Source: Candidatus Woesearchaeota archaeon (lineage in GTDB: Archaea > Nanobdellota > Nanobdellia > Woesearchaeales > JAFCFN01). Taken from it: DNA of 64,000 nucleotides. Within the stretch, counting starts at the first letter, position 1, and each line of letters begins with the position of its first letter. Location of the stretch: NCBI GenBank assembly GCA_017608625.1, contig JAFCFN010000006.1:295-64294 (forward strand), read 5' to 3'. The position numbers and the translations under genes were made by a program. Below the pieces are notes generated by a model. That model saw only the letters and a program-made list of their open reading frames with translations, was not told the DNA's origin and did not search any database. Below are positions 1,390 to 49,024 of this stretch, piece by piece.

Positions 1390-2604
1390 TTATATTTTTT
1401 CTTCTATTCTTAACAATCTATTGTACTTGGCCAACCTCTCTCCTCTGCAAGGAGCACCTGCTTTGATAAACTCTGCTTCTAGTGCAACAGCCAAATCAGC
1501 TATAAAAGGATCATTTGTTTCTCCTGATCTATGACTTATCATTATTTTCCAGCCTGCTTTTTTTGCTAGTTTTCCAGCATTAATAGCTTCTGTTACTGTT
1601 CCTATTTGATTAGGCTTTAACAACAAACAAGAGCAAGATTTCAGCTTTATTGCTTTTTTAATCCTCTTAGGATTTGTTGCTAATAAATCATCTCCAACAA
1701 TCATTACTTCTTTGCCAATTTTTTTTCTCAAAGCTGCAAAGGCCTTGAATTCATCTTGTGCAAAAGGATCCTCTATGCTTATTATTGGATATTTATTTGT
1801 TAGTTCAACATAAAAATCAATTAATTGGTTTGTTGTAAAGCTTTTATTGTCAATAATATATCTGCCATTTTTGAAAAATTCATTTGCAGCACAATCCAAG
1901 CCAATTTTAACTTTGTTTTCATAGCCTGCTTCTTTTATTGCTTGAAATAGTAATTTTAAAGGCATTTCAACTTTTGCTAAAGGTGGTGCAAATCCTCCTT
2001 CATCACCAACATTTATTGCCTTTTTTCCATATTTTTTCTCAAGAATTTTTTTAAGAGTATAGTAGATTTCTGATCCTGCTTGTAACCTGTCCTTGAAGCA
2101 GGGGAATCTGATGGGAATTATCATATACTCTTGAAAAGCTAGATTATTTCCAGCATGTTTGCCACCATTTATTATATTGAAACAAGGAATAGGTAATTTT
2201 TTTCCTTTACCTAAATATTCATACAATTCTTTTCCAGATGCCAAAGCACCAATTCTTGCTGTTGCAATACTCACAGCTAAAATTGCATTAGCACCTAATC
2301 TGGATTTGTTTTCTGTTCCATCCAATTTTATTAGTTTATTATCAATCCTACTTTGTTTTCTACAATCTATTCCAACTAAATTTCTAGCAATCACCCCATT
2401 TATATTAGCAACAGCTTTTAAAACACCTTTTCCAAGAAATCTTTTTTCATTATCTCTTAATTCAACTGCCTCATACTTGCCTCTGCTTTTTCCTGATGGA
2501 ACAGATGCTCTGCCAATTCCTATTTTAGTCCAGACATCTGCTTCTATTGTTGGTATGCCTCTAGAATCTAGAATTTCTCTTGCTTTAATTTTCAGGATTT
2601 TCAT
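1390..2604 (-). CDS. eno: enolase
   Basis: 404 aa; 'SIEDPF', 'DDLLATNP', 'SHRSGET' enolase signatures. Confidence 0.9.
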   Translation of the reverse strand: MKILKIKAREILDSRGIPTIEADVWTKIGIGRASVPSGKSRGKYEAVELRDNEKRFLGKGVLKAVANINGVIARNLVGIDCRKQSRIDNKLIKLDGTENKSRLGANAILAVSIATARIGALASGKELYEYLGKGKKLPIPCFNIINGGKHAGNNLAFQEYMIIPIRFPCFKDRLQAGSEIYYTLKKILEKKYGKKAINVGDEGGFAPPLAKVEMPLKLLFQAIKEAGYENKVKIGLDCAANEFFKNGRYIIDNKSFTTNQLIDFYVELTNKYPIISIEDPFAQDEFKAFAALRKKIGKEVMIVGDDLLATNPKRIKKAIKLKSCSCLLLKPNQIGTVTEAINAGKLAKKAGWKIMISHRSGETNDPFIADLAVALEAEFIKAGAPCRGERLAKYNRLLRIEEKI

Positions 2605-2682
2605 TCTTCACCTATCATACCTTCTTTTATATAAGCACTAGTAAGAATCAGAAGGATAAATACCAAAATCTGCTTTCTCATC

Positions 2683-3468
2683 TTAACCAATATAGTTTGT
2701 TTCTTTTCTTTTGCTTAATTTTTTGAAAGCAAGCTGTTTTGATACAGTTGAAATATCTCTTGTTCTTCTTATTAGTTCTGATTCTATCTCTTTTATTTCT
2801 TTGTCTAATTTAGTAAGATTCAGTTTTAGATTTAATTTTTTATTTAAGATTTTCAGCTCTTCTCTTGCTCCTTTGATACCCAAATAAAGGGGATGACCAA
2901 GTGTTTCTGCTAGTAATGCAATTGCTTTTATTTTTCTTTTCTCTGCTAATCCTAGCAATAGACCAGTTACACCAATTATCGGTCCTACAACTCCATAAAT
3001 TTTATCATTAAGCTCTGTGTCTTTTTTATATTTGTTAATAATTTCCTTGTTGTTTGCTGTGCAAAATACTCTTGGTTTTTTTGGCATCTCTGCCAAGCCA
3101 ATTCCCCCAAGGGTTATTATTTCTTTTCCTTTGTAACTTTGGAAAATATCTAGAATTTTCTCACAAAATTCATAAGAACTAACCTCATCAACAGGTTGGA
3201 TATCTCCTGCTAAAAGCAATAGATCGTTTTTTGGCATTTTTTTGTAATAGAGCTCTATTTTTGGTAGATCTACTAAATTATTCTCATTAACAAAAACAGA
3301 ATGAGGAAAAGTATATGAGAAGATGTTGTATATTTTTTTAGCTTTTAACTCAGATATCAAAAAATCAACAGCTATTTTTCCAACATTTCCTATACCAGGT
3401 AAACCCTCTATTAAAATAGGGCTCTTGGGTTTGACTTTCATTAATTTGGTTATCTTCCACATACTCAT
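2683..3468 (-). CDS. PAC2-family (proteasome assembly chaperone-like) protein
   Basis: 'ILIEGLPGIGNVGKIAVDFL' N-terminal motif typical of archaeal PAC2/COG1938 proteins. Confidence 0.5.
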   Translation of the reverse strand: MSMWKITKLMKVKPKSPILIEGLPGIGNVGKIAVDFLISELKAKKIYNIFSYTFPHSVFVNENNLVDLPKIELYYKKMPKNDLLLLAGDIQPVDEVSSYEFCEKILDIFQSYKGKEIITLGGIGLAEMPKKPRVFCTANNKEIINKYKKDTELNDKIYGVVGPIIGVTGLLLGLAEKRKIKAIALLAETLGHPLYLGIKGAREELKILNKKLNLKLNLTKLDKEIKEIESELIRRTRDISTVSKQLAFKKLSKRKETNYIG

Positions 3469-3641
3469 AATAGCCCTCTTTTAATTAACTCTTCTCTTTT
3501 AGCAGCTCTTCTGTATCTTGCATACTTATCCTCAACGCTAAATTTTGCTGGCTTAGCAGAAACACATTTTGCTTTACAGTTAGGACAAATTTCATGCATT
3601 GTGTAATTGTTGCAGTTTGTGCATTTCAGAATATGTTTCAT
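3465..3641 (-). CDS. nop10: H/ACA RNP protein Nop10 (not in ORF track, 58 aa)
   Basis: translation MKHILKCTNCNNYTMHEICPNCKAKCVSAKPAKFSVEDKYARYRRAAKREELIKRGLL; start overlaps aIF2-alpha stop (ATGA), stop overlaps next gene start; conserved aIF2alpha-Nop10 linkage. Confidence 0.8.
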   Translation of the reverse strand: MKHILKCTNCNNYTMHEICPNCKAKCVSAKPAKFSVEDKYARYRRAAKREELIKRGLL

Positions 3642-4408
3642 CTTTTTAGCAGTTCAACATGAGCTTTTTGTTTTTCCATGTTCTCAACTATAAAAGCTGT
3701 TTTTTGAGCAAGTTCTTTTTCTGCATCTTTATAGTTATGAGCTGTAATTGTTAATGTGTATTTACCACCACCCTTATACAAGACATTCACTTTAGTAGTT
3801 TGTATTTTTTTTAGAATATCTTTAATTATTTCTACACCATTTGGAGCATAGCTTTGTAAGATTATATCTTGCTTAACTTCAACTTCTTTTAGTTTTATTC
3901 TTTGTTTTATTGTTTCTGCTAGAATTTTAGTATCTTTTTCTGACAGTTTTAATTCCTTTAACACATCTTCATTTATAAGAGATTCTTCAAAAACAGAATA
4001 AATACTTGTATATTTGTCTTTTATTCTTTCATAGATGTCATTGCATAATTTTTTTGCATCCTGATTTGTTTGTTGCGCAATATATTTTATTATTTTTTCA
4101 GCAATTTGCTGCTGTTTTATTTCATTGTTTTTGATTTTTCTCTGATTTTCGTTAACTCTTCTTAAACTTAAATCAATATGGCCTTTTTCTTTATCCACAT
4201 TTAATACTTTACAAATAATTTTTTTGTTAGGAGTAACATAGTCTCTTATGTTTCTTATTCTTCCAGGTGAGATTTCAGAAATATGAATCATGCCTGTTTT
4301 GCCATACTCATCGAGTAAAGCAAAAACAGAATTATGGTATATCTGCGTTACAGTACAAAGTACAAATTCTCCTTCTTCAGGAAACCCTTTTTTTTGCAAG
4401 AGAAGCAT
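3638..4408 (-). CDS. eif2a: translation initiation factor aIF2 alpha subunit
   Basis: N-terminal S1 domain 'GEFVLCTVTQI...GMIHISEI', 256 aa. Confidence 0.9.
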   Translation of the reverse strand: MLLLQKKGFPEEGEFVLCTVTQIYHNSVFALLDEYGKTGMIHISEISPGRIRNIRDYVTPNKKIICKVLNVDKEKGHIDLSLRRVNENQRKIKNNEIKQQQIAEKIIKYIAQQTNQDAKKLCNDIYERIKDKYTSIYSVFEESLINEDVLKELKLSEKDTKILAETIKQRIKLKEVEVKQDIILQSYAPNGVEIIKDILKKIQTTKVNVLYKGGGKYTLTITAHNYKDAEKELAQKTAFIVENMEKQKAHVELLKR

Positions 4409-16696: not shown

Positions 16697-16786
16697 CGGG
16701 CCTGAGGAGATTCGAACTCCTGACCTTTACCTATCTTCTATTTAAAGTAGGAGGGTACTGCTCTATCCAGACTGAGCTACAGGCCC
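16697..16786 (-). tRNA. tRNA-Arg(CCU) with 15-nt canonical anticodon-loop intron
   Basis: rc gives GGGCCTG-TA-GCTCAGTCTGGATAGAGC-A-GTACC-CTCCTA[intron]A-GGTAA-AGGTC-AGGAGTTCGAATCTCCT-CAGGCCC-G. Confidence 0.7.
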
Positions 16787-17993: not shown

Positions 17994-18078
17994 AGCCTCA
18001 GGAGGGATTTGAACCCTCGACCTGCTGATTTCTAGCAGAGCTACAAGTCAGCTGCTCTGGCCACTGAGCTACTGAGGC
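17994..18078 (-). tRNA. tRNA-Thr(UGU) with ~12-nt anticodon-loop intron
   Basis: rc gives GCCTCAG-TA-GCTCAGTGGCCAGAGC-A-GCTGA-CTTGTA[GCTCTGCTAGAA]A-TCAGC-AGGTC-GAGGGTTCAAATCCCTC-CTGAGGC-T. Confidence 0.75.
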
Positions 18079-21558: not shown

Positions 21559-21936
21559 CTACTTCTTCTTCATAGCATCAAAAGTAGCTGGCAAATCAAT
21601 TATATATTTGCCATCAGCTAGCTTGAAAACCAAAGGTTCTTTTTTGAATAAATGAACTAAATCCAGTTCATACTTTCCTGGTTTAAGGACTCTTATACTC
21701 TCAAAGTCGAGAACAACTGGCTTTTCTTCATGCTCTTCCTTTCCTATTAGATCAAGAACATCCTTCTCTAGTTCTTGTTTTTGCTTTTCTGTTAGATTAA
21801 TAGTTATTTCTTTGGCTTGCTCTAGTTTTTCTTTTTTAATAAAAAAGAAGAGTCTTGATCCGCAAGAACAGCCTTTGAGAATTTCATTAGCTGTATCATC
21901 ATACAACTTTCCGCATCTTACACACTGGTGTGGCAT
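21559..21936 (-). CDS. Zn-ribbon protein (DUF2072-like)
   Basis: N-terminal 'CVRCG...CSCGS' C4 ribbon, 125 aa. Confidence 0.5.
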   Translation of the reverse strand: MPHQCVRCGKLYDDTANEILKGCSCGSRLFFFIKKEKLEQAKEITINLTEKQKQELEKDVLDLIGKEEHEEKPVVLDFESIRVLKPGKYELDLVHLFKKEPLVFKLADGKYIIDLPATFDAMKKK

Positions 21937-22066
21937 AACCGTAGCCGGTTAACGTCTAGGCGATATTCGATTGCTTCGCAATCGAAATCCCCTGGCCTCG
22001 CTTTGACTTGTCTGCGAGCAAGCGAGCAGACTCGCTTGCAAGTCAGCTCGGCTGTTAACCTCCTCC
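21937..22066 (-). ncRNA. GC-rich structured element between GGAGG and ATG (copy 1, ~130 nt)
   Basis: ~60% GC in 30% GC genome; nested hairpins (GACTTG/CAAGTC, CAAGCGAG/CTCGCTTG, TTCGATTGC/GCAATCGAA); flanking GTTAAC palindromes; 3' 27-mer shared with copy at 43643. Confidence 0.5.
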
Positions 22067-22067
22067 A

Positions 22068-22472
22068 TTATTTCCTCTTTTTCTTAATTTTTCTTCTCTT
22101 TTTTACTTCTTTTGTTAGTAACTCTATTTTCTTTGGATCTTTTTTAATTGATTTGACAACATTTGCAGGTCCAATAATAGTCAACCCTGTTCTATCTCCT
22201 AGTAATGAATTAATTAAACCTTCCTTAAATCTGCTGAACCAAGGAGTATCTTTACTAATGTTAGGATAGATGACACTTAGTTCAATTCCTTTAAATTCTT
22301 TATTTATTTCTTCCATTGTTGCTTTTATTAATTCTGCTTCTTCCTCTTTTTTTAGCCTTCCTTGTAACAACACTATTTTGTTCTCTTTTGCTATATTAAG
22401 CAATTTTCTTATTCTCCCTACAGATGTCAAATCTGCAATTTCATTATAAGGCACAACTTGTAGAGTTACCAT
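22068..22472 (-). CDS. conserved archaeal protein (DUF2073-like), Lys-rich tail
   Basis: 134 aa; sits between small GTPase and Zn-ribbon gene, as in the conserved archaeal triplet. Confidence 0.4.
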   Translation of the reverse strand: MVTLQVVPYNEIADLTSVGRIRKLLNIAKENKIVLLQGRLKKEEEAELIKATMEEINKEFKGIELSVIYPNISKDTPWFSRFKEGLINSLLGDRTGLTIIGPANVVKSIKKDPKKIELLTKEVKKRRKIKKKRK

Positions 22473-23933: not shown

Positions 23934-25097
23934 TTAAACACTCCTCTTCACAATCAAACTAGTTTTAATGATCTCTTTAGCTTTCTCCAAATCTTTTTTC
24001 TCAACTTTGTTTCTTAACTCTAATCTTGCAGCTGCTTTTGCCAATCTAATTAAACCAATAATCATTCTAGGAGAAACCTCAACTAAGAAATTATTCTCCT
24101 TTTCTTTAAGTTCTTTGCTAAATTCTACAACATCTTTTTGAAAATCTCTTGGAAACTCTACTTTTATTTGTTGAGCATGATCAATATATTCTTTTATGAA
24201 ATTTAAGTCCATCTTATTTACTTTTTTTCTGTCTTGTTCAACAATCTTTTTTGCTATTTCTGAGAATTGAGTTACACCAGGTGTTTTGATTAAGAACACT
24301 AAATGAAACCTTGTTAACAAGGCAGGGTCAAAAGGTATCTGTTTTTTTAGATCCTCAATTCTTACTCCAATGAACTTATCTTTTTTTGGATTAGCAGAAG
24401 CAAGAACATTTACTTTTGCTTCAAATGTATAGTGCTTTCCTCCTTTATTATATGATATAAAACCTTTTTCCATTGCGTTATACAAACTTGCTCTGTCTTC
24501 TTGCTTCATCAGATTTAACTCATCTATTACAGCAATTCCATTATTTGCCATCGGTAATAAACCAGGGATTACATCATTCCCTTTTACTGTAACAGCTAAG
24601 CCTGCTGAGGATGTTCCTGAGCCTAGACCAAATGAAGAGATAGGAGCTAGATCTGTTACTGATTTTATTATATCTGATTTGCCAATCCCTGGATCTCCTA
24701 ATAGTAAGATATGTAGCTGTTCTGCAAATAACTGCAATAACACTGCTTCTTTTACTGTATCTAAACCAGTTATATTTGGTGCAATTAAGTTTAAAATAGT
24801 TGATCTTGCTTTTTTGCTGAAATCCTCAAAAGCCTTTCTTTTATAATGATAATCTATTGTTTTGTTCATTAAATCAACAAAATCAGCAACTCTTTTGTCC
24901 ATAACAGATAACTCAAGAATAGGAAATATCTCATCATAAACAAGGGTTGTGCCTAATCTTGATTGAGAAAAAGATATACTGCCTTCTTTTAGCAGTTTTT
25001 TAACTTTTTTTGCATCTTCTTTATCTAAGATTTCTTTTATTATTTTGAAATTTGCTCTTTTTGTGCCTAACAAAGGCAATAGTTGTTTCCACCCCAT
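23934..25097 (-). CDS. MCM-family AAA+ ATPase lacking canonical N-terminal domain (mini-MCM)
   Basis: Walker A 'LLLGDPGIGKS', Walker B 'IAVIDELNLM', MCM-specific 'YNAMEKGFISYNKGG...VLASANP', Arg finger 'LLTRF'; only 387 aa. Confidence 0.65.
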   Translation of the reverse strand: MGWKQLLPLLGTKRANFKIIKEILDKEDAKKVKKLLKEGSISFSQSRLGTTLVYDEIFPILELSVMDKRVADFVDLMNKTIDYHYKRKAFEDFSKKARSTILNLIAPNITGLDTVKEAVLLQLFAEQLHILLLGDPGIGKSDIIKSVTDLAPISSFGLGSGTSSAGLAVTVKGNDVIPGLLPMANNGIAVIDELNLMKQEDRASLYNAMEKGFISYNKGGKHYTFEAKVNVLASANPKKDKFIGVRIEDLKKQIPFDPALLTRFHLVFLIKTPGVTQFSEIAKKIVEQDRKKVNKMDLNFIKEYIDHAQQIKVEFPRDFQKDVVEFSKELKEKENNFLVEVSPRMIIGLIRLAKAAARLELRNKVEKKDLEKAKEIIKTSLIVKRSV

Positions 25098-31083: not shown

Positions 31084-31476
31084 ATGATTGACCTATCAAA
31101 ACTAGAGCAAATATTGAAAGATTCTTGGAGTAAAGAAACTAGCTCTGACCCAGATAATTGGTCACCAGAAAATCCTGCTTGGGGACAATGCGCAGTTACA
31201 TCATTAATTGTTAATGATTGTTTAGGAGGAGAAATTGTTTGGGCTCCAGCCATTCTTCCTAATGGAAAGGAGATATCACACTATTTTAATAAAATAAATG
31301 GAAAAGAAATTGATCTAACAAGGGAACAATTCCCATCTGGAACAAAGATTCCTCTAGGCATTCCGAAATCAAAACAATTTTCAACAACAAGGGAGTATAT
31401 TCTTTCTTATCCTGAAACTCAAAGAAGATATGAAATATTAAAACAAAAGGTCCAAAAGGCTTTAGAACTCACTTAA
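31084..31476 (+). CDS. hypothetical protein
   Basis: 130 aa; not Rad50. Confidence 0.3.
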   Translation: MIDLSKLEQILKDSWSKETSSDPDNWSPENPAWGQCAVTSLIVNDCLGGEIVWAPAILPNGKEISHYFNKINGKEIDLTREQFPSGTKIPLGIPKSKQFSTTREYILSYPETQRRYEILKQKVQKALELT

Positions 31477-32532
31477 TGTCTTAACCTTACTATATCTTAC
31501 AATTGTTGTAGTACCTTCTTTACCACCTGTTATTTTTTCTAAAGAAACAAATCTTCCTTTTTCTAGTTTATCTATCTTTCTCTGGAATGTTTTGTAGCTG
31601 CTTTTGCCACCTTGTTTTTGGTATATTGTAAATAACTCTCCAATTTTTAATCCACTATTTACTTTTATTAAATCAAGCAGTGCATGTAATTCATCATCCA
31701 AATCAGTACTTTTTTTGATTGAGAAATCATCTAATTTTTTGATAGCATTCTGAACATGTTTTATTGTTATCTTTTTGCTGCTTTCATCTTCTGCTAAATT
31801 TCCTGCTTCTCTCATTAAATATAAACCAGACCTTATGTCTTCTAATTCTGCTGTTTTTTTAACAACAAGCTCAAATGCATCATCTTGCCATACACCAGGA
31901 ACAAATGCATACTGCATTCTCTGCTTTAGTATGTCTCTTGTTTCAGCCTCAGAATATGGTCTAAAATGCAGGGTTTCTGCAATTAATCTTGATTTTAATC
32001 TTGAATCTAAGTTAAAAATCCAGTCTTTGTGATTTGTTATCATAAGAATTGTTTTTCTGTAGATTTCTTCCAAGATAGAATAAAGAAAATCTAAGTCCTC
32101 TGCTTTGTCTATTTCATCAAAACAGAAAACAACTGATTTCTTGTTTAATTGCTCTTTTATTACCTTAAAAAGCTCGTTTGATTTTTTGTTTTGGGTAAAT
32201 CTATACTCAAGCTGATCGCATAACTCAAGCATTATTTTATATGTAGTATTTTTTTGCCAACAATTGACATAAATTGGAATTACTGAATCTGTTTTTTCTT
32301 CTAATTCCTGAAAAATATGTTTGCATGCAACTGTTTTTCCAACTCCTGATGAGCCATAAATCAATAAATTTTTGCCATTTCTTTTTGAGAACAAAGGTTT
32401 TATACAGCTGGCAATATAATGCTGTTCATTTTCTCTATGAGGAATTAATTTAGGGATATAATCATAATCTAGTGCAACAGTGTCTCTAAAAAGACTTTCC
32501 TCAGAACCTAGCATGTTGTCAAATATTCCCAT
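31462..32532 (-). CDS. cdc6: Orc1/Cdc6 replication initiator
   Basis: 'LLIYGSSGVGKT' Walker A, 'VFCFDEID' Walker B, C-terminal winged helix. Confidence 0.85.
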   Translation of the reverse strand: MGIFDNMLGSEESLFRDTVALDYDYIPKLIPHRENEQHYIASCIKPLFSKRNGKNLLIYGSSGVGKTVACKHIFQELEEKTDSVIPIYVNCWQKNTTYKIMLELCDQLEYRFTQNKKSNELFKVIKEQLNKKSVVFCFDEIDKAEDLDFLYSILEEIYRKTILMITNHKDWIFNLDSRLKSRLIAETLHFRPYSEAETRDILKQRMQYAFVPGVWQDDAFELVVKKTAELEDIRSGLYLMREAGNLAEDESSKKITIKHVQNAIKKLDDFSIKKSTDLDDELHALLDLIKVNSGLKIGELFTIYQKQGGKSSYKTFQRKIDKLEKGRFVSLEKITGGKEGTTTIVRYSKVKTLSEF

Positions 32533-37827: not shown

Positions 37828-37861
37828 ATTTTATAAATCAATTGTTATATCCTTTTAATGT

Positions 37862-38010
37862 GCGCAGATGGTCTAATGGCATGACAATGGCCTTCCATTT
37901 CGAAAGCAGGCTTGTGTAATGCTCTAAAAAGCTTTGCTTTTCGAAGCAAGCCATTTATCCGGGTTCGAATTAGCAAAGTAAGCTTTGCTTTGAAAGTCCC
38001 GGTCTGCGCA
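37862..38010 (+). tRNA. tRNA-Gly(UCC)-like with two introns (anticodon loop ~51 nt; T-loop ~27 nt)
   Basis: acceptor GCGCAGA/TCTGCGC+A; anticodon stem ATGGC/GCCAT, loop CTTCCA[intron]A; T arm CCGGG-TTCGAA[intron]T-CCCGG. Confidence 0.6.
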
Positions 38011-38313: not shown

Positions 38314-39747
38314 ATGGCAGAAAATATTGAGTTAAAAAAAATTTCTGATGTAATTTGGGAAATACCTAAAACAGGCAATATGAATGTCCCTACAAGAATT
38401 TTTGCTTCTGAAAAATTATTAGAAAAGATGAAGCTGGATAGAACTTTAGAACAAGGGAGAAATGTTGCTTGTTTGCCAGGAATTTACAAACATGCTATTA
38501 TTTTGCCAGATGGTCATGAGGGATATGGATTTCCTATTGGAGGAGTTGCTGCACTAGATTATGAAAAAGGAGGAATATCTCCAGGCGGTATTGGTTATGA
38601 TATTAATTGTGGTATGAGACTATTAAGAACTAATCTTAAAAAAGAGGATATTTATCCCAGGATTAAAGAACTGTTAGAGAGCTTGTTTCAGCATGTTCCT
38701 GCAGGATTAGGTAGCTCAAATATCAGAGTTACAAAAGATGTATTGCTTGGTGTTCTTAATAAAGGAGCTAAATGGGCTGTTGAAAATGGTTATGGTAATG
38801 AGGATGATCTAGAATTTTGTGAGGAAAATGGGAGTATGTCAACTGCTGATGCATCAGCTGTTTCTGAAAAAGCCAAAAGCAGAGGACTTAAACAGCTTGC
38901 TACTCTTGGTAGTGGAAACCATTTTCTTGAGGTTCAGTATGTTGATAAAATATTTGATAAAGAAGTAGCAAAGGTTTTTGGAATAAAAGAGGAAGGACAA
39001 GTAACTTTAATGATCCATTGTGGAAGCAGAGGCTTAGGACATCAGGTTTGCTCAGATTATTTAAGAGAAATGGAAAGAAGATTGCCTGAAATTGTTGCTA
39101 AAATACCTGACAAAGAGCTAATTTATGCGCCTTCTGGGCATGAACTTTGTGAAAAATATCTAAAAGCAATGTCAGCTGCTGCTAATTTTGCATGGTGCAA
39201 TAGACATATTATTGGTCATCAGTGTAGACTAGCTTTTTCAAATATTTTTTCTGATGTAAAACTTGAAACTGTTTATGATGTTGCTCATAATATTGCAAAA
39301 ATAGAAGAACATAAGATAGATGGAGAAGTTAAAAAAGTGTTTATGCATAGAAAAGGAGGAACAAGGGCATTTGGTCCTGGAGGAAAAGAAATTCCTGAAA
39401 AATATAGAGATGTTGGCCAGCCGATTATTATTCCTGGCTCTATGGGAACTGCCTCTTATGTTTTAGTTGGTACAAAAGAAGGAATGGAGATCAGTTTTGG
39501 TAGTACAGCTCATGGTGCTGGAAGAACAATGTCAAGACATCAAGCACTAAAGCAATACAGAGGAGAGAAATTAAAAAGAGAATTAGAGGAAAGAAAAATT
39601 TTTGTTAGATCTGCTTCTTGGAAAGGTATTGCAGAAGAAGCTCCTGGTGCTTATAAGGATATTGAAGAGGTTGTTGATGTAAGCCATAAAGCAAATATTG
39701 GTAAAAAGGTAGTTAGATTAAAGCCAATAGGTGTTATTAAAGGATGA
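38314..39747 (+). CDS. rtcB: RNA-splicing ligase RtcB
   Basis: 'GYDINCGMRLL', 'GSGNHFLEVQ', 'HCGSRGLGHQ', 'AHGAGR' motifs. Confidence 0.9.
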   Translation: MAENIELKKISDVIWEIPKTGNMNVPTRIFASEKLLEKMKLDRTLEQGRNVACLPGIYKHAIILPDGHEGYGFPIGGVAALDYEKGGISPGGIGYDINCGMRLLRTNLKKEDIYPRIKELLESLFQHVPAGLGSSNIRVTKDVLLGVLNKGAKWAVENGYGNEDDLEFCEENGSMSTADASAVSEKAKSRGLKQLATLGSGNHFLEVQYVDKIFDKEVAKVFGIKEEGQVTLMIHCGSRGLGHQVCSDYLREMERRLPEIVAKIPDKELIYAPSGHELCEKYLKAMSAAANFAWCNRHIIGHQCRLAFSNIFSDVKLETVYDVAHNIAKIEEHKIDGEVKKVFMHRKGGTRAFGPGGKEIPEKYRDVGQPIIIPGSMGTASYVLVGTKEGMEISFGSTAHGAGRTMSRHQALKQYRGEKLKRELEERKIFVRSASWKGIAEEAPGAYKDIEEVVDVSHKANIGKKVVRLKPIGVIKG

Positions 39748-40157
39748 AACCTTATGAATTTTTAGAGCATACAGCTGATGCAAAATTTAGAGCTTATGGC
39801 AAAACTTTAGAGGAAGCATTTCAGAATGCAGCTTATGCTATGACAGATGTTATAACTGATCATACAAAAATCAAGCCTGTTATAGAGAAAACAATTTCTG
39901 TAGAATCAGAAAATAAAGAAGCATTGCTTTATGATTTTTTAGAGCAGTTTCTTATTCTGCTTGACAGCGAGGGTTTTATATTGAACAAAATAGAGGAGGT
40001 AAAGATGCAAAATAATAAAATTACAGCAAAAATTATTGGGGACAACCATCCAGAAGAATATAATATAGAAACTCACATTAAAGCAGTTACTTATGAAGAG
40101 ATGTTTATTAAAAAAGAAAAAGATCAGTGGATTGTGCAGGTTATTGTTGATATTTAG
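39744..40157 (+). CDS. archease
   Basis: 'YEFLEHTADAKFRAYGKTLEEAF' archease N-terminus; overlaps rtcB stop. Confidence 0.8.
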   Translation: MKPYEFLEHTADAKFRAYGKTLEEAFQNAAYAMTDVITDHTKIKPVIEKTISVESENKEALLYDFLEQFLILLDSEGFILNKIEEVKMQNNKITAKIIGDNHPEEYNIETHIKAVTYEEMFIKKEKDQWIVQVIVDI

Positions 40158-46798: not shown

Positions 46799-48736
46799 TC
46801 ACAATTCCAACAACCTTCTAAAAAACAAATAAATTTTCTGGAAAATATTCACATTTACAAGAGAAAGCTCAAAACTCTTGCTAACAGAATATTCTTTGTT
46901 GTTCTCATCTAAATATCTTATTGTTAGATTGAAAATATTTTTGCCTGGTTTGAGATCATTAGCTTTAAGATTGAATATTATGTTTTGTGTTTTATTAAGT
47001 TCAGCTAAGTTTAGTTTTTTGTTTCCAAGATTAATTGTAATGTTTTTAGGAATTGATTTTGATTCTTTTTCTAAAGTAAATGAAATTGTATATTTTTGAT
47101 TAAAACTTACATTTAAAGGAAAATTAAGATCAGTAATATTGATTTTTGGAATATCCAAAATTTCTAGATCAGGAAAGATTGTTTTTGATATTTCTTTGTT
47201 TATTGCTATTATTCTTACTCTCTTTAGTTGTTCTGTAATATTAAAGCTGAATGTCTTTTCTTGGGCTATGCCTAAATTAAATATTTTACAATCTTTTTCT
47301 AGACATACACTGATGTTTTCCAGATAGATGTTTCCTTTATTTTTAATTTCGCAATTAAGAACTGGTTTTTCATATAAATACTGCCTTTTTTTATCTGAGC
47401 TGCAGTTAAGATAAATTTCTTTGCTATAAACCTTTTTCTCTTCTTCTTGTAGCTGCTTAAATAATTTATTTATTTCTTCAAAACTAAAAACATCATCTTT
47501 TGCAGAAGATTTGAACTCAGTTTTAGCTGTTGCATTTCTTTCTGAAAATAATTGTAAAGGAAAGGTATATATGTAGTTCTTTTGTAGATTTTTTGTTAAA
47601 TTAATTATCCAATAAACCTGTTTTTTTGATTTAGGAGGTAATAAGATTCTTTTTTCTTTATTTAACACACTTATTTGGGATGGGGCTGCAAGAGTTAGTG
47701 TGGTTGCTATATAATAATTATTAGGATTTGTTATTGTTGCTTTTACTAAATTAAATGAACCAAAACCAACACTGTCCTCTATCATCTCCAAATTCAGATC
47801 CAACAAAGGTTTCACATTCCCAATTTGTTCTGTTACATCTGCCTTCATTTCCAAAGATGATGCTACTAAGTTAATATTCCTGCCTGTCCATTCATATCTT
47901 GTACTACTCTCATTACCTGATAGACCATAGTTTAGCAAAACATGAGAAGCATCTATGCTGTTAAACTCGCCATAAGTTGGATCTACATCTATCCAGCCAT
48001 AATCAGGAAAATAAACTCTTGCCCAAGCATGCCAATTAAAACCTTTTAGTTGAGGTAAATTTGAATAAGAGATTCCTGAAATATATTGAGCAGGAATTCC
48101 TAATGCTCTTACTAATGCTACAAACAGATTTGTAAATTCATCACATGTTCCTTTTTTATTTTCCAAGACCCCACTTGCTTTTTCTATTCTTTCTGCACAA
48201 GATAAATCATAATCAACATTGCTTTTAACAAAATCAAATAATTTGAAAACAACTTGATAAAGATCATCAGAACCTGCTGCTAACTGAGAGGCTGTTGAGA
48301 TTATTTTAGCATTATCAGAATCAATGAGTGCAGAGGGTTTGGTGTATTGAACATATTCTTCTGGGATATCCTGCAGTGGAAATGGAATTTTAGTTCTTAT
48401 TTTTTTAATTTTGTTTTCTGTTCTTATTCTGGCTGTTAAATACATTTGGAGTTCCTTTTCTTCTGGAGACTGCCATTCAAATCTCAAAATATTATCTTGT
48501 TCTGTTGCTTCAGGAAATGTTTCTAAGAGAATGACTTCTTGTTTGTCTGTATCTTGTGGAAAGAAGTAGAGGTCAGATATTACTTTGTCTATTGAATAAC
48601 TGCTCTTTGTAGGTGTTAGTGTGATGGTTGAGGATAAGTTAAGATTTAACTCAAGCTGTTTTGCTAGAGAGTAGTCTTCTGCTGATACTAGTTGTAATGA
48701 TATTAGAATTAACAAGATAGTGATCAATTTTTTCAT
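46799..48736 (-). CDS. secreted transglutaminase-like cysteine protease domain protein
   Basis: signal peptide; 'GTCDEFTNLF', 'WHAWARVY', 'DPT' Cys-His-Asp core. Confidence 0.6.
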   Translation of the reverse strand: MKKLITILLILISLQLVSAEDYSLAKQLELNLNLSSTITLTPTKSSYSIDKVISDLYFFPQDTDKQEVILLETFPEATEQDNILRFEWQSPEEKELQMYLTARIRTENKIKKIRTKIPFPLQDIPEEYVQYTKPSALIDSDNAKIISTASQLAAGSDDLYQVVFKLFDFVKSNVDYDLSCAERIEKASGVLENKKGTCDEFTNLFVALVRALGIPAQYISGISYSNLPQLKGFNWHAWARVYFPDYGWIDVDPTYGEFNSIDASHVLLNYGLSGNESSTRYEWTGRNINLVASSLEMKADVTEQIGNVKPLLDLNLEMIEDSVGFGSFNLVKATITNPNNYYIATTLTLAAPSQISVLNKEKRILLPPKSKKQVYWIINLTKNLQKNYIYTFPLQLFSERNATAKTEFKSSAKDDVFSFEEINKLFKQLQEEEKKVYSKEIYLNCSSDKKRQYLYEKPVLNCEIKNKGNIYLENISVCLEKDCKIFNLGIAQEKTFSFNITEQLKRVRIIAINKEISKTIFPDLEILDIPKINITDLNFPLNVSFNQKYTISFTLEKESKSIPKNITINLGNKKLNLAELNKTQNIIFNLKANDLKPGKNIFNLTIRYLDENNKEYSVSKSFELSLVNVNIFQKIYLFFRRLLEL

Positions 48737-48825: not shown

Positions 48826-49024
48826 GCCGCCGTGGCACAACCTGGTATCACTAAATGTGACAGGAAACTGCGCGGGATTGCTATGAGAAATTGTCTATTC
48901 TCACTAAGATCCCGTTCCCTTCGGGGTATCTGGGTTCAAAAAAGTGAAGTGTAGACAGAGGGGCAGTTACTACAGAGCTGCTTGCTTTGTTTACATCCGG
49001 CTTTTGAAAGTCCCAGCGGCGGCG
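48826..49024 (+). tRNA. tRNA-Ser(GCU)-like, probably three introns (D-loop ~17 nt, anticodon loop ~25 nt, T-loop ~70 nt)
   Basis: acceptor GCCGCCG/CGGCGGC+G; anticodon stem CGGGA/TCCCG with loop TTGCTA[intron]A; variable hairpin TCCC-TTCG-GGGG; T arm CTGGG-TTCAAA[intron]T-CCCAG; exon sum ~87 nt. Confidence 0.5.

Follow-up and report, generated by a model that had tools for sequence, protein, structure and literature searches.

Positions 37862–38010 (+) of the stretch analysed here, 64,000 nucleotides (nt) of contig JAFCFN010000006.1 from Candidatus Woesearchaeota archaeon (hereafter the window), very probably hold a functional gene for tRNA-Gly(UCC) that two protein-spliced introns of the bulge-helix-bulge (BHB) type interrupt; the host is a DPANN archaeon of the Woesearchaeota type. 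The gene is 149 nt long and comprises three exons and two introns, laid out as GCGCAGA-TG-GTCT-AATGGCA-TGAC-A-ATGGC-CTTCCA-[51 nt]-A-GCCAT-TTAT-CCGGG-TTCGAA-[27 nt]-T-CCCGG-TCTGCGC-A. All of its parts lie on the forward strand. The 5' exon (37862–37897) covers tRNA positions 1–37, that is, the 5' strand of the acceptor, the D arm, the 5' strand of the anticodon stem and C32-U33-U34-C35-C36-A37. It is followed by a 51-nt intron in the anticodon loop at 37/38 (37898–37948) and by the middle exon (37949–37969; positions 38–59), which contains A38, the 3' strand of the anticodon stem, a 4-nt variable loop, the 5' strand of the T stem and U54–A59 of the T loop. The second intron, of 27 nt, lies in the T loop at 59/60 (37970–37996), and the 3' exon (37997–38010; positions 60–73) supplies U60, the 3' strands of the T stem and acceptor, and the discriminator A73 (38010). 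The acceptor, read directly from the sequence, pairs GCGCAGA (37862–37868) with TCTGCGC (38003–38009); CCA is not encoded.

Deletion of both introns in silico yields a 71-nt tRNA-Gly(UCC) with a clean cloverleaf in ARAGORN, and deletion of the T-loop intron alone makes the program report a tRNA-Gly(UCC) with a 51-nt anticodon-loop intron. The spliced product carries C2:G71, G3:C70, C35, C36 and A73, which we take to be the archaeal glycine identity set. In its unspliced form the gene was missed by ARAGORN, run on the window, and by Rfam at the gathering threshold, only three other tRNAs being returned; even at E ≤ 10 Rfam had no match at the locus. Because the intron mode of ARAGORN is permissive, independent evidence was sought in the relatives of the gene and in the BHB motifs. 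Upstream of the gene, the sequence has a TATA-like box, TTTTATAAA (37829–37837, +; −33 to −25 from tRNA position 1), which is its putative promoter. Boxes of the TTT(T)ATAA type are also found 5' of the tRNA-Gly genes of two related contigs described below (L083 and L081) and of the tRNA-Met (at about −25 to −37) and tRNA-Thr (about −34 to −42) genes of the window.

In the published definition, the BHB consists of a helix of 4 base pairs (bp) between two 3-nt bulges, and in the canonical archaeal motif anticodon bases 34 and 35 are part of the central helix (PMC4090602); this places each cut behind the second base of a bulge. The T-loop intron has just such a 4-bp helix and two 3-nt bulges. 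Its outer helix (h) is the T stem, CCGGG:CCCGG (5 bp). The central helix pairs the exonic UUCG at 37964–37967 (U54-U55-C56-G57) with UGAA at 37991–37994, and is flanked by the bulges AA|U on the 5' side (37968–37970; A58-A59|U) and AG|U on the 3' side (37995–37997; A-G|U60). After one U·U mismatch, the inner hairpin (h') pairs 37972–37978 with 37983–37989 (AGCAAAG/CUUUGCU, 7 bp) around the loop UAAG. The original prediction had proposed folding the TTCGAA:TTTGAA pairing as a BHB, and when folded this pairing indeed supplies the central helix of a motif resembling the BHB. The predicted cuts restore the T loop UUCGAAU exactly. In a scan of both strands of the window that combined a strict BHB search (H = 4 bp, h ≥ 3 bp) with ARAGORN, this junction, recovered with h = 5 bp and h' = 7 bp, gave the sole credible additional tRNA. 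The 149-nt precursor folds at −52.5 kcal/mol (z = −3.7; 0/200 shuffles as good), and its minimum free energy (MFE) structure includes the T-loop bulge-helix-bulge.

The anticodon-loop intron departs somewhat further from the textbook motif. Its central helix pairs CUUC at 37892–37895 (C32-U33-U34-C35), and hence anticodon bases 34 and 35, with GAAG at 37943–37946. The 3' half, with the bulge CA|A (37947–37949; C-A|A38) next to the anticodon stem, is canonical. On the 5' side, the site C36-A37|U is part of a 6-nt/1-nt internal loop, whose 6-nt strand faces a single C; beyond this loop, 37902–37908 pair with 37935–37941 to form a 7-bp inner helix. As modelled, the intron fits the relaxed hBH class (PMC5829648). 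The sequence alone allows several junctions, namely 35/36, 36/37 or 37/38 for this intron, because of a CA repeat, and 59/60 or 60/61 for the T-loop intron, because of a U repeat; the choice of 37/38 and 59/60 follows from the BHB register.

Relatives of the gene have no, one or two introns. An intronless tRNA-Gly(UCC) on contig L083 (JGI Ga0366832_1001072; 2499–2569) is identical to the in silico spliced product at 70 of 71 positions, the one difference being a D-loop base of the 5' exon, and scores 73.2 bits (E = 1.4e-14) with Rfam RF00005. The gene order on this contig, gyrB-DHH-YdjM-tRNA-(three extra genes)-RtcB-archease-SMC, is syntenic with that of the window, and the same tRNA-RtcB arrangement is seen in the NCBI assembly Woesearchaeota Meg22_1012_Bin_87 (L001; RtcB 86% identical). 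The metagenome contig L081 has the same tRNA-Gly exons with two differences, interrupted by a 14-nt anticodon-loop intron only, with no intron in the T loop. Finally, a 1-kb Logan contig (L274) contains a 195-nt tRNA-Gly(UCC) gene (636–830, +) whose introns, of 91 nt at 37/38 and of 33 nt at 59/60, both fit the BHB register; the motif of the former is near-canonical. The YdjM-tRNA order is kept on this contig, YdjM is 54% identical to that of the window and the spliced tRNA is identical at 61 of 71 positions. The h' of its T-loop intron differs in sequence and is still helical, with 10 of 11 positions paired and an A-U pair in place of the U·U mismatch of the window. Among the four mature tRNA-Gly sequences, 80/80 cloverleaf cells form standard pairs, and four pairs (A5:U68, replaced by G:C, and three pairs of the anticodon stem) show compensatory double changes, which no shuffle or slid control reaches. 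The two-intron gene is found in identical form in two JGI assemblies from different samples, L085 (99.97% identical over 14 kb) and L273 (100% over 5.5 kb), and is therefore not an assembly artefact. Among RtcB relatives at 72–80% identity, synteny was lost and no further tRNA-Gly copies were found.

The clean 71-nt product and its near identity with the L083 orthologue bear out the original prediction of a tRNA-Gly(UCC) gene with introns in the anticodon loop and the T loop. The acceptor, the anticodon stem ATGGC/GCCAT, the loop CTTCCA...A and the T-arm elements that it named all lie where it placed them, and its figures of ~51 and ~27 nt of extra sequence at 37/38 and 59/60 proved exact as to length, both positions being those selected by the BHB register.

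The same relatives bear on the idea that the locus is a tRNA pseudogene, inactivated by two insertions with incidental BHB-like folds, while another intact gene supplies tRNA-Gly(UCC). This would agree with the lack of a call by the standard tRNA finders, but we consider it highly improbable. The exons are almost unchanged relative to L083 although the flanking protein is 51% identical and the intergenic flanks, except for the TATA box, cannot be aligned. Both insertions lie in contexts that fit a BHB, and their register is precisely the one that gives back anticodon and T loops of 7 nt each. L274 has introns at the same two positions, and its exons show the four compensatory changes and no disrupted pair; the neighbouring tRNA-Ser gene (see below) has the same design. 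Furthermore, DPANN genomes usually carry single-copy tRNA genes.

If the gene is functional, as we think, transcription from the TATA box ~30 nt upstream would produce the 149-nt precursor with a leader and a trailer. An archaeal tRNA endonuclease (EndA) would recognize the BHB at each intron and cut after the second base of each 3-nt bulge. In the T loop, it would act on a motif built from the T stem as outer helix, U54–G57 paired with UGAA as central helix, the AA|U and AG|U bulges and the 7-bp intron hairpin as inner helix. In the anticodon loop, C32–C35 would pair with GAAG, the 3' cut would fall in the CA|A bulge and the 5' site would lie in the relaxed loop. RtcB and archease would then ligate the three exons into the 71-nt tRNA, to which CCA would be added afterwards. 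Genes for both proteins, the RtcB tRNA-splicing ligase (38314–39747, +; Pfam PF01139, E = 3e-171) and its cofactor archease (39744–40157, +; PF01951, E = 8e-42), are present in the window and start 304 nt downstream of the tRNA. We do not regard this adjacency as a functional link, since the same neighbourhood in L083 surrounds an intronless tRNA, which points to conserved synteny.

Several points weigh against this reading. A second, intact tRNA-Gly(UCC) gene may lie outside the 64-kb window. The intron option of ARAGORN is permissive, as its behaviour on the tRNA-Ser gene demonstrates, so its call alone carries little weight. In the anticodon arm, the BHB conformer (−14.5 kcal/mol) is 4.6 kcal/mol less stable than the MFE structure (−19.1 kcal/mol), in which the intron's own UUUC captures the GAAG; in the T arm, the MFE structure adds an A58-U pair and so has a 5-bp helix, not the textbook 3-4-3, and is 2.3 kcal/mol better than the strict BHB. 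Pfam searches with 64 of the 65 open reading frames of at least 100 aa found no EndA (tRNA_int_endo) in the window. Cleavage and ligation, the order in which the introns are removed and a broad-specificity EndA encoded elsewhere in the genome are what we infer.

Other readings of the locus are unlikely. We consider it highly improbable that one or both inserts stay in the mature RNA, where they could form, for instance, an additional T-loop arm of an aberrant tRNA-like RNA with another function. This reading has no direct support, and the unusual stability of the precursor (z = −3.7) is what could be cited for it. The relatives function with the uninterrupted 71-nt form, and RNase P, the CCA enzyme, the synthetase and the ribosome all need the elbow between D loop and T loop, which a T-loop hairpin of 27 nt would destroy. 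Group I or group II introns are not indicated either: at 27 and 51 nt, the inserts compare with a catalytic core of more than ~200 nt, and there was no Rfam match (E ≤ 10). A split or permuted tRNA is at odds with three exons that are colinear and contiguous within 149 nt. A box C/D guide RNA within the introns was also considered and rejected, as C/D motifs were not visible by eye and Rfam had no match.

The two introns of the tRNA-Gly gene resemble each other, a relationship that went unnoticed in the original prediction. They share the 12-mer AAGCTTTGCTTT, found at 37929–37940 (+) in the anticodon-loop intron and at 37980–37991 (+) in the T-loop intron; these are its only exact copies in the window. 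A common substring of this length arose in 1/5000 shuffles, and local alignment of the two introns was matched by 0/1000 and 0/2000 shuffles. Thus, introns at different tRNA positions are significantly similar. The likeness extends beyond the intron boundary: the anticodon-loop intron of the window (T-TTCGA-AAGC-...-AAGCTTTGCTTTTCGAAG-CA) aligns end to end with a unit of L274 that consists of the T-loop TTCGAA plus the T-loop intron (TTCGAATAAGC...AAGCCTTGCTTTTGAAAG; 0/3000 shuffles, and 0/2000 by local alignment), and also with the corresponding T-loop unit of the window itself (0/3000 shuffles). In L274, by comparison, the anticodon-loop intron is unrelated to the T-loop intron of the same gene (844/2000 shuffles). 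The interior of this 91-nt intron forms a hairpin, CATTCGAAAC-TTC-GTTTCGAAGCC, and shares TTTCGAAGC with the anticodon-loop intron of the window (34/2000 shuffles).

A common origin of the two introns within the tRNA-Gly gene is strongly supported. By its appearance, the anticodon-loop intron is paralogous to the T-loop intron unit and includes copied exonic T-loop bases. It may have arisen from, or been overwritten by, a DNA copy of T-loop bases 54–59 plus the T-loop intron of the same gene, a scenario to which we give slightly less than an even chance. As the copy carries exon bases, an event at the DNA level is suggested, be it a segmental duplication, gene conversion or a recombination that used the microhomology TTCGAA. 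Both this direction and the mechanism of copying are what we infer. Such a move would be feasible because UUC occurs both in CUUC of the anticodon loop and in UUCG of the T loop, so that a single intron end of the form ...GAA-NN can build the central helix at either site.

The shared 12-mer and the overall hairpin design of the two inserts could also be taken as a sign that they are copies of a small mobile palindromic element, similar to the hairpin of a miniature inverted-repeat transposable element, that is tolerated only because it can be excised and is a selfish repeat, not an intron family. Related cores in the T-loop intron of L274 and, weakly, in the T-loop intron of tRNA-Ser would fit this idea, which we nonetheless rate as having little chance of being correct. 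Among the 152 loci fetched, AAGCTTTGCTTT had one unrelated match besides L085, which represents the same locus. No terminal inverted repeats or target-site duplications were seen beyond the BHB helices, and the 18-nt hairpin core had a single match in 2.9 million viral contigs (intron core sequence, AAGCYTTGCTTTT). Moreover, a mobile element overlaps with the intron explanation and does not exclude it.

The window, L083 and L274 are roughly equidistant by YdjM (identities of 51%, 54% and 51% among the three lineages), so that the intronless state may reflect loss or the intron-bearing state gain. The T-loop intron, which is also present in L274, is clearly older than the species represented by the window. 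Two of the lineages with zero, one or two introns in tRNA-Gly(UCC) come from the same sample. We also considered whether an integrated element follows the intronless tRNA of L083, as would fit a role of introns in shielding tRNA genes from integration. Between the tRNA and RtcB, this contig has 1.4 kb of extra sequence (2570–4000) with three genes (an unknown gene, a methyltransferase and an NMD3-like gene). Neither an integrase nor an att-like repeat of the 3' end of the tRNA was found there, and the idea was dropped.

As an observation apart, the 14-nt anticodon-loop intron of L081 (3013–3026; TTTAAGAAGATGAA) resembles the 15-nt intron of the tRNA-Arg(CCU) of the window (16729–16743, −; CTTTAAATAGAAGAT). 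The likeness is marginal (35/1000 shuffles) and may reflect either another shared intron family or merely the GAAG constraint.

A T-loop intron at 59/60 is also present in a second multi-intron gene of the window, a tRNA-Ser(GCU) with three introns (48826–49024, +) that was missed by ARAGORN and Rfam. Its intron boundaries were set from the syntenic orthologue on contig L086 (1660–1743, −), which is intronless and, like the spliced tRNA-Ser, 84 nt long; brute-force deletion combined with ARAGORN -i gave many spurious isotypes. The D-loop intron (48849–48868, +; 20 nt) has an HBh'-like relaxed motif, the anticodon-loop intron (48884–48908, +; 25 nt) has no canonical BHB fit (4x4 internal loop) and the T-loop intron (48941–49010, +; 70 nt) ends in TTTTGAAAG|T.

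According to the original prediction, the T-loop introns of the two genes have the same 3' motif. A 9-nt string, TTTGAAAG|T, is indeed common to both, but the predicted CTTTGAAAGT itself is not exactly shared, the introns ending in CTTTTGAAAG|T (Ser) and GCTTTGAAAG|T (Gly). When a longer end is taken, the tRNA-Gly intron of the window has CTTTGAAAG|T, and that of L274 has TTTTGAAAG|T, as does tRNA-Ser. The last six intron bases are UGAA, which pairs with U54-U55-C56-R57, followed by A-G, the intron's two bases of the 3' bulge. The T loop hardly varies, so that an end of the form YGAA-NN is imposed on every BHB intron at 59/60, and pairing with the conserved T-loop bases accounts for most of TTTGAAAG|T. 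Of the two explanations that had been offered for the motif, an endonuclease recognition feature therefore largely stands, since UGAA must pair with the T loop. A common origin of the Gly and Ser T-loop introns fares only marginally: their similarity was reached by 23/1000 and 44/2000 shuffles, and it vanished (230/2000) when the constrained last 6 nt were removed.

A scan of IMG/VR for introns at 59/60, made to see whether AG is favoured in the bulge, returned at least two contigs, both of which had already been found with the AG-biased pattern. The IMG/VR contigs L111 (−) and L116 (11125–11246, +) encode an initiator-like tRNA-Met (A1:U72; GGG/CCC in the anticodon stem) with an insertion in the anticodon region and a 30-nt T-loop insertion at 59/60; the latter ends in TTGAAAG|T, and its inner helix has 9 bp. 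On L116, which has a GC content of 48%, there is in addition a cluster of tRNA genes (Gly, Leu with a 71-nt intron, and Ala). This looks like cellular archaeal DNA or the flank of a provirus rather than a virus.

Genes of this kind are already known: archaeal tRNA genes with several introns have been documented, as have relaxed BHB motifs and the 59/60 site (PMC4090602, PMC4033280, PMC8450103), with 59/60 listed as a non-canonical intron site (PMC4090602). The paralogy of the two introns within the gene, together with differences in intron presence among related lineages, makes the mechanism of intron gain testable. Among the closest parallels are genes of the Thermoproteales, for example the tRNA-Pro(UGG) of Pyrobaculum, whose introns lie at 25/26, 37/38 and 56/57 (Sugahara 2007/2008; reviews, PMC4090602, PMC4033280). 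Those genes, like the tRNA-Gly gene, are colinear and are missed by standard tRNA finders; they combine one canonical with one or two non-canonical BHB or relaxed-BHB introns, of which there are up to three per gene. In contrast to the hyperthermophilic crenarchaea, a Woesearchaeota-type DPANN archaeon rich in AT (31% GC) is the host here, and it would be expected to use a DPANN alpha4-type endonuclease with an L3 loop, not an (alpha-beta)2 enzyme that has the loop of the crenarchaea (PMC5829648).

In the Thermoproteales, introns that are related but occupy different positions have been described as intron transposition, the mechanism of which was called unknown (PMC4090602). Compared with those cases (PMC4090602, PMC4033280), the related pair here resides within one gene, and its anticodon-loop copy contains the exonic TTCGAA, which points to a DNA segment that spans the exon-intron boundary and not to an intron alone. 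Ectopic and multiple introns, including some in the T arm, whose removal depends on the BHB are also found in the tRNA genes of Cyanidioschyzon merolae and of nucleomorphs (PMC3728597, PMC9602550); those genes are eukaryotic, nuclear or nucleomorph, whereas the window is archaeal by gene content.

Disrupted tRNA genes are likewise known from the same superphylum (PMC3239211, PMC5829648). ARMAN/Micrarchaeota have such genes along with an epsilon2 EndA (PMC3239211). Kaneta et al. report alpha4 EndAs with an additional L3 loop from several DPANN lineages, a feature associated with markedly more disruption of tRNA genes; their survey of tRNAs included one Woesearchaeota and one Pacearchaeota genome (PMC5829648). 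The searched text of these two papers (PMC3239211, PMC5829648) gives counts per genome and does not describe the tRNA-Gly gene, its T-loop intron or its evolutionary history.

Since neither ARAGORN nor Rfam sees it, this essential tRNA would be listed as absent from the metagenome-assembled genome. The gene is thus a concrete example of the unexplained incompleteness of tRNA sets predicted in some DPANN and Asgard genomes (PMC5829648). A BHB model specific to DPANN could be trained with it; the intron models of tRNAscan-SE 2.0 were built from Crenarchaeota/Euryarchaeota and Thaumarchaeota (PMC8450103). The occurrence of zero, one or two introns in the same gene, and of paralogous introns with exon-derived bases, bears on the gain of archaeal tRNA introns, the mechanism of which has been called unknown (PMC4090602), and the paired introns hint at how such introns spread. 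If the copying scenario is true, the gene would be an example of archaeal tRNA intron movement caught in the act, and would point to a mechanism that acts on DNA and takes exon bases along, in Woesearchaeota with zero, one or two introns per tRNA-Gly.

The assignment of the host as a DPANN archaeon of the Woesearchaeota type follows from the archaeal gene content of the window and from its RtcB matches. The tRNA-Gly gene is surrounded by genes for seryl-tRNA synthetase (−), gyrB, a DHH phosphoesterase and a YdjM-like membrane protein on one side and for RtcB, archease and SMC (−) on the other. The window also encodes eIF2alpha, PAC2, MCM, Orc1/Cdc6, OapB, OapC, TrmB, GatE/B, L10e and an archaeal-type SAM synthetase. 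In reference genomes, the nearest RtcB genes are those of Candidatus Woesearchaeota (86%), Pacearchaeota and Nanoarchaeota. A word-index protein search with RtcB gave a best match of 88%, although identical RtcB sequences (L085, L273) were present in the same collection, so that the best-match identity in this search does not identify the closest relative.

Four of the five tRNA genes of the window carry introns, seven in all: one in Arg(CCU), one in Thr(UGU), two in Gly(UCC), three in Ser(GCU) and none in the initiator Met. The tRNA-Arg(CCU) gene (16697–16786, −) has a 15-nt intron when ARAGORN is run with introns, and is labelled Gly(CCC) by default. The gene at 17994–18078 (−), to which default ARAGORN assigns a 4-base anticodon 'tgta', is most plausibly a tRNA-Thr(UGU) with a 12-nt intron at 37/38. 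The Ser(AGA) call made for it by ARAGORN -i was rejected as implausible for a tRNA that has no long variable arm.

Comparison with L085 revealed a 36-bp length difference at 48272–48308, within a transglutaminase-domain gene (46799–48736, −), in sequence that is otherwise 99.97% identical; this could be either population microheterogeneity or an assembly difference. A cluster of ~11 kb (21559–22472, −; 23934–25097, −; 31462–32532, −) holds the genes for the origin-associated proteins OapC and OapB, for Orc1/Cdc6 and for a short AAA protein that resembles MCM, which suggests that a replication origin lies near this cluster.

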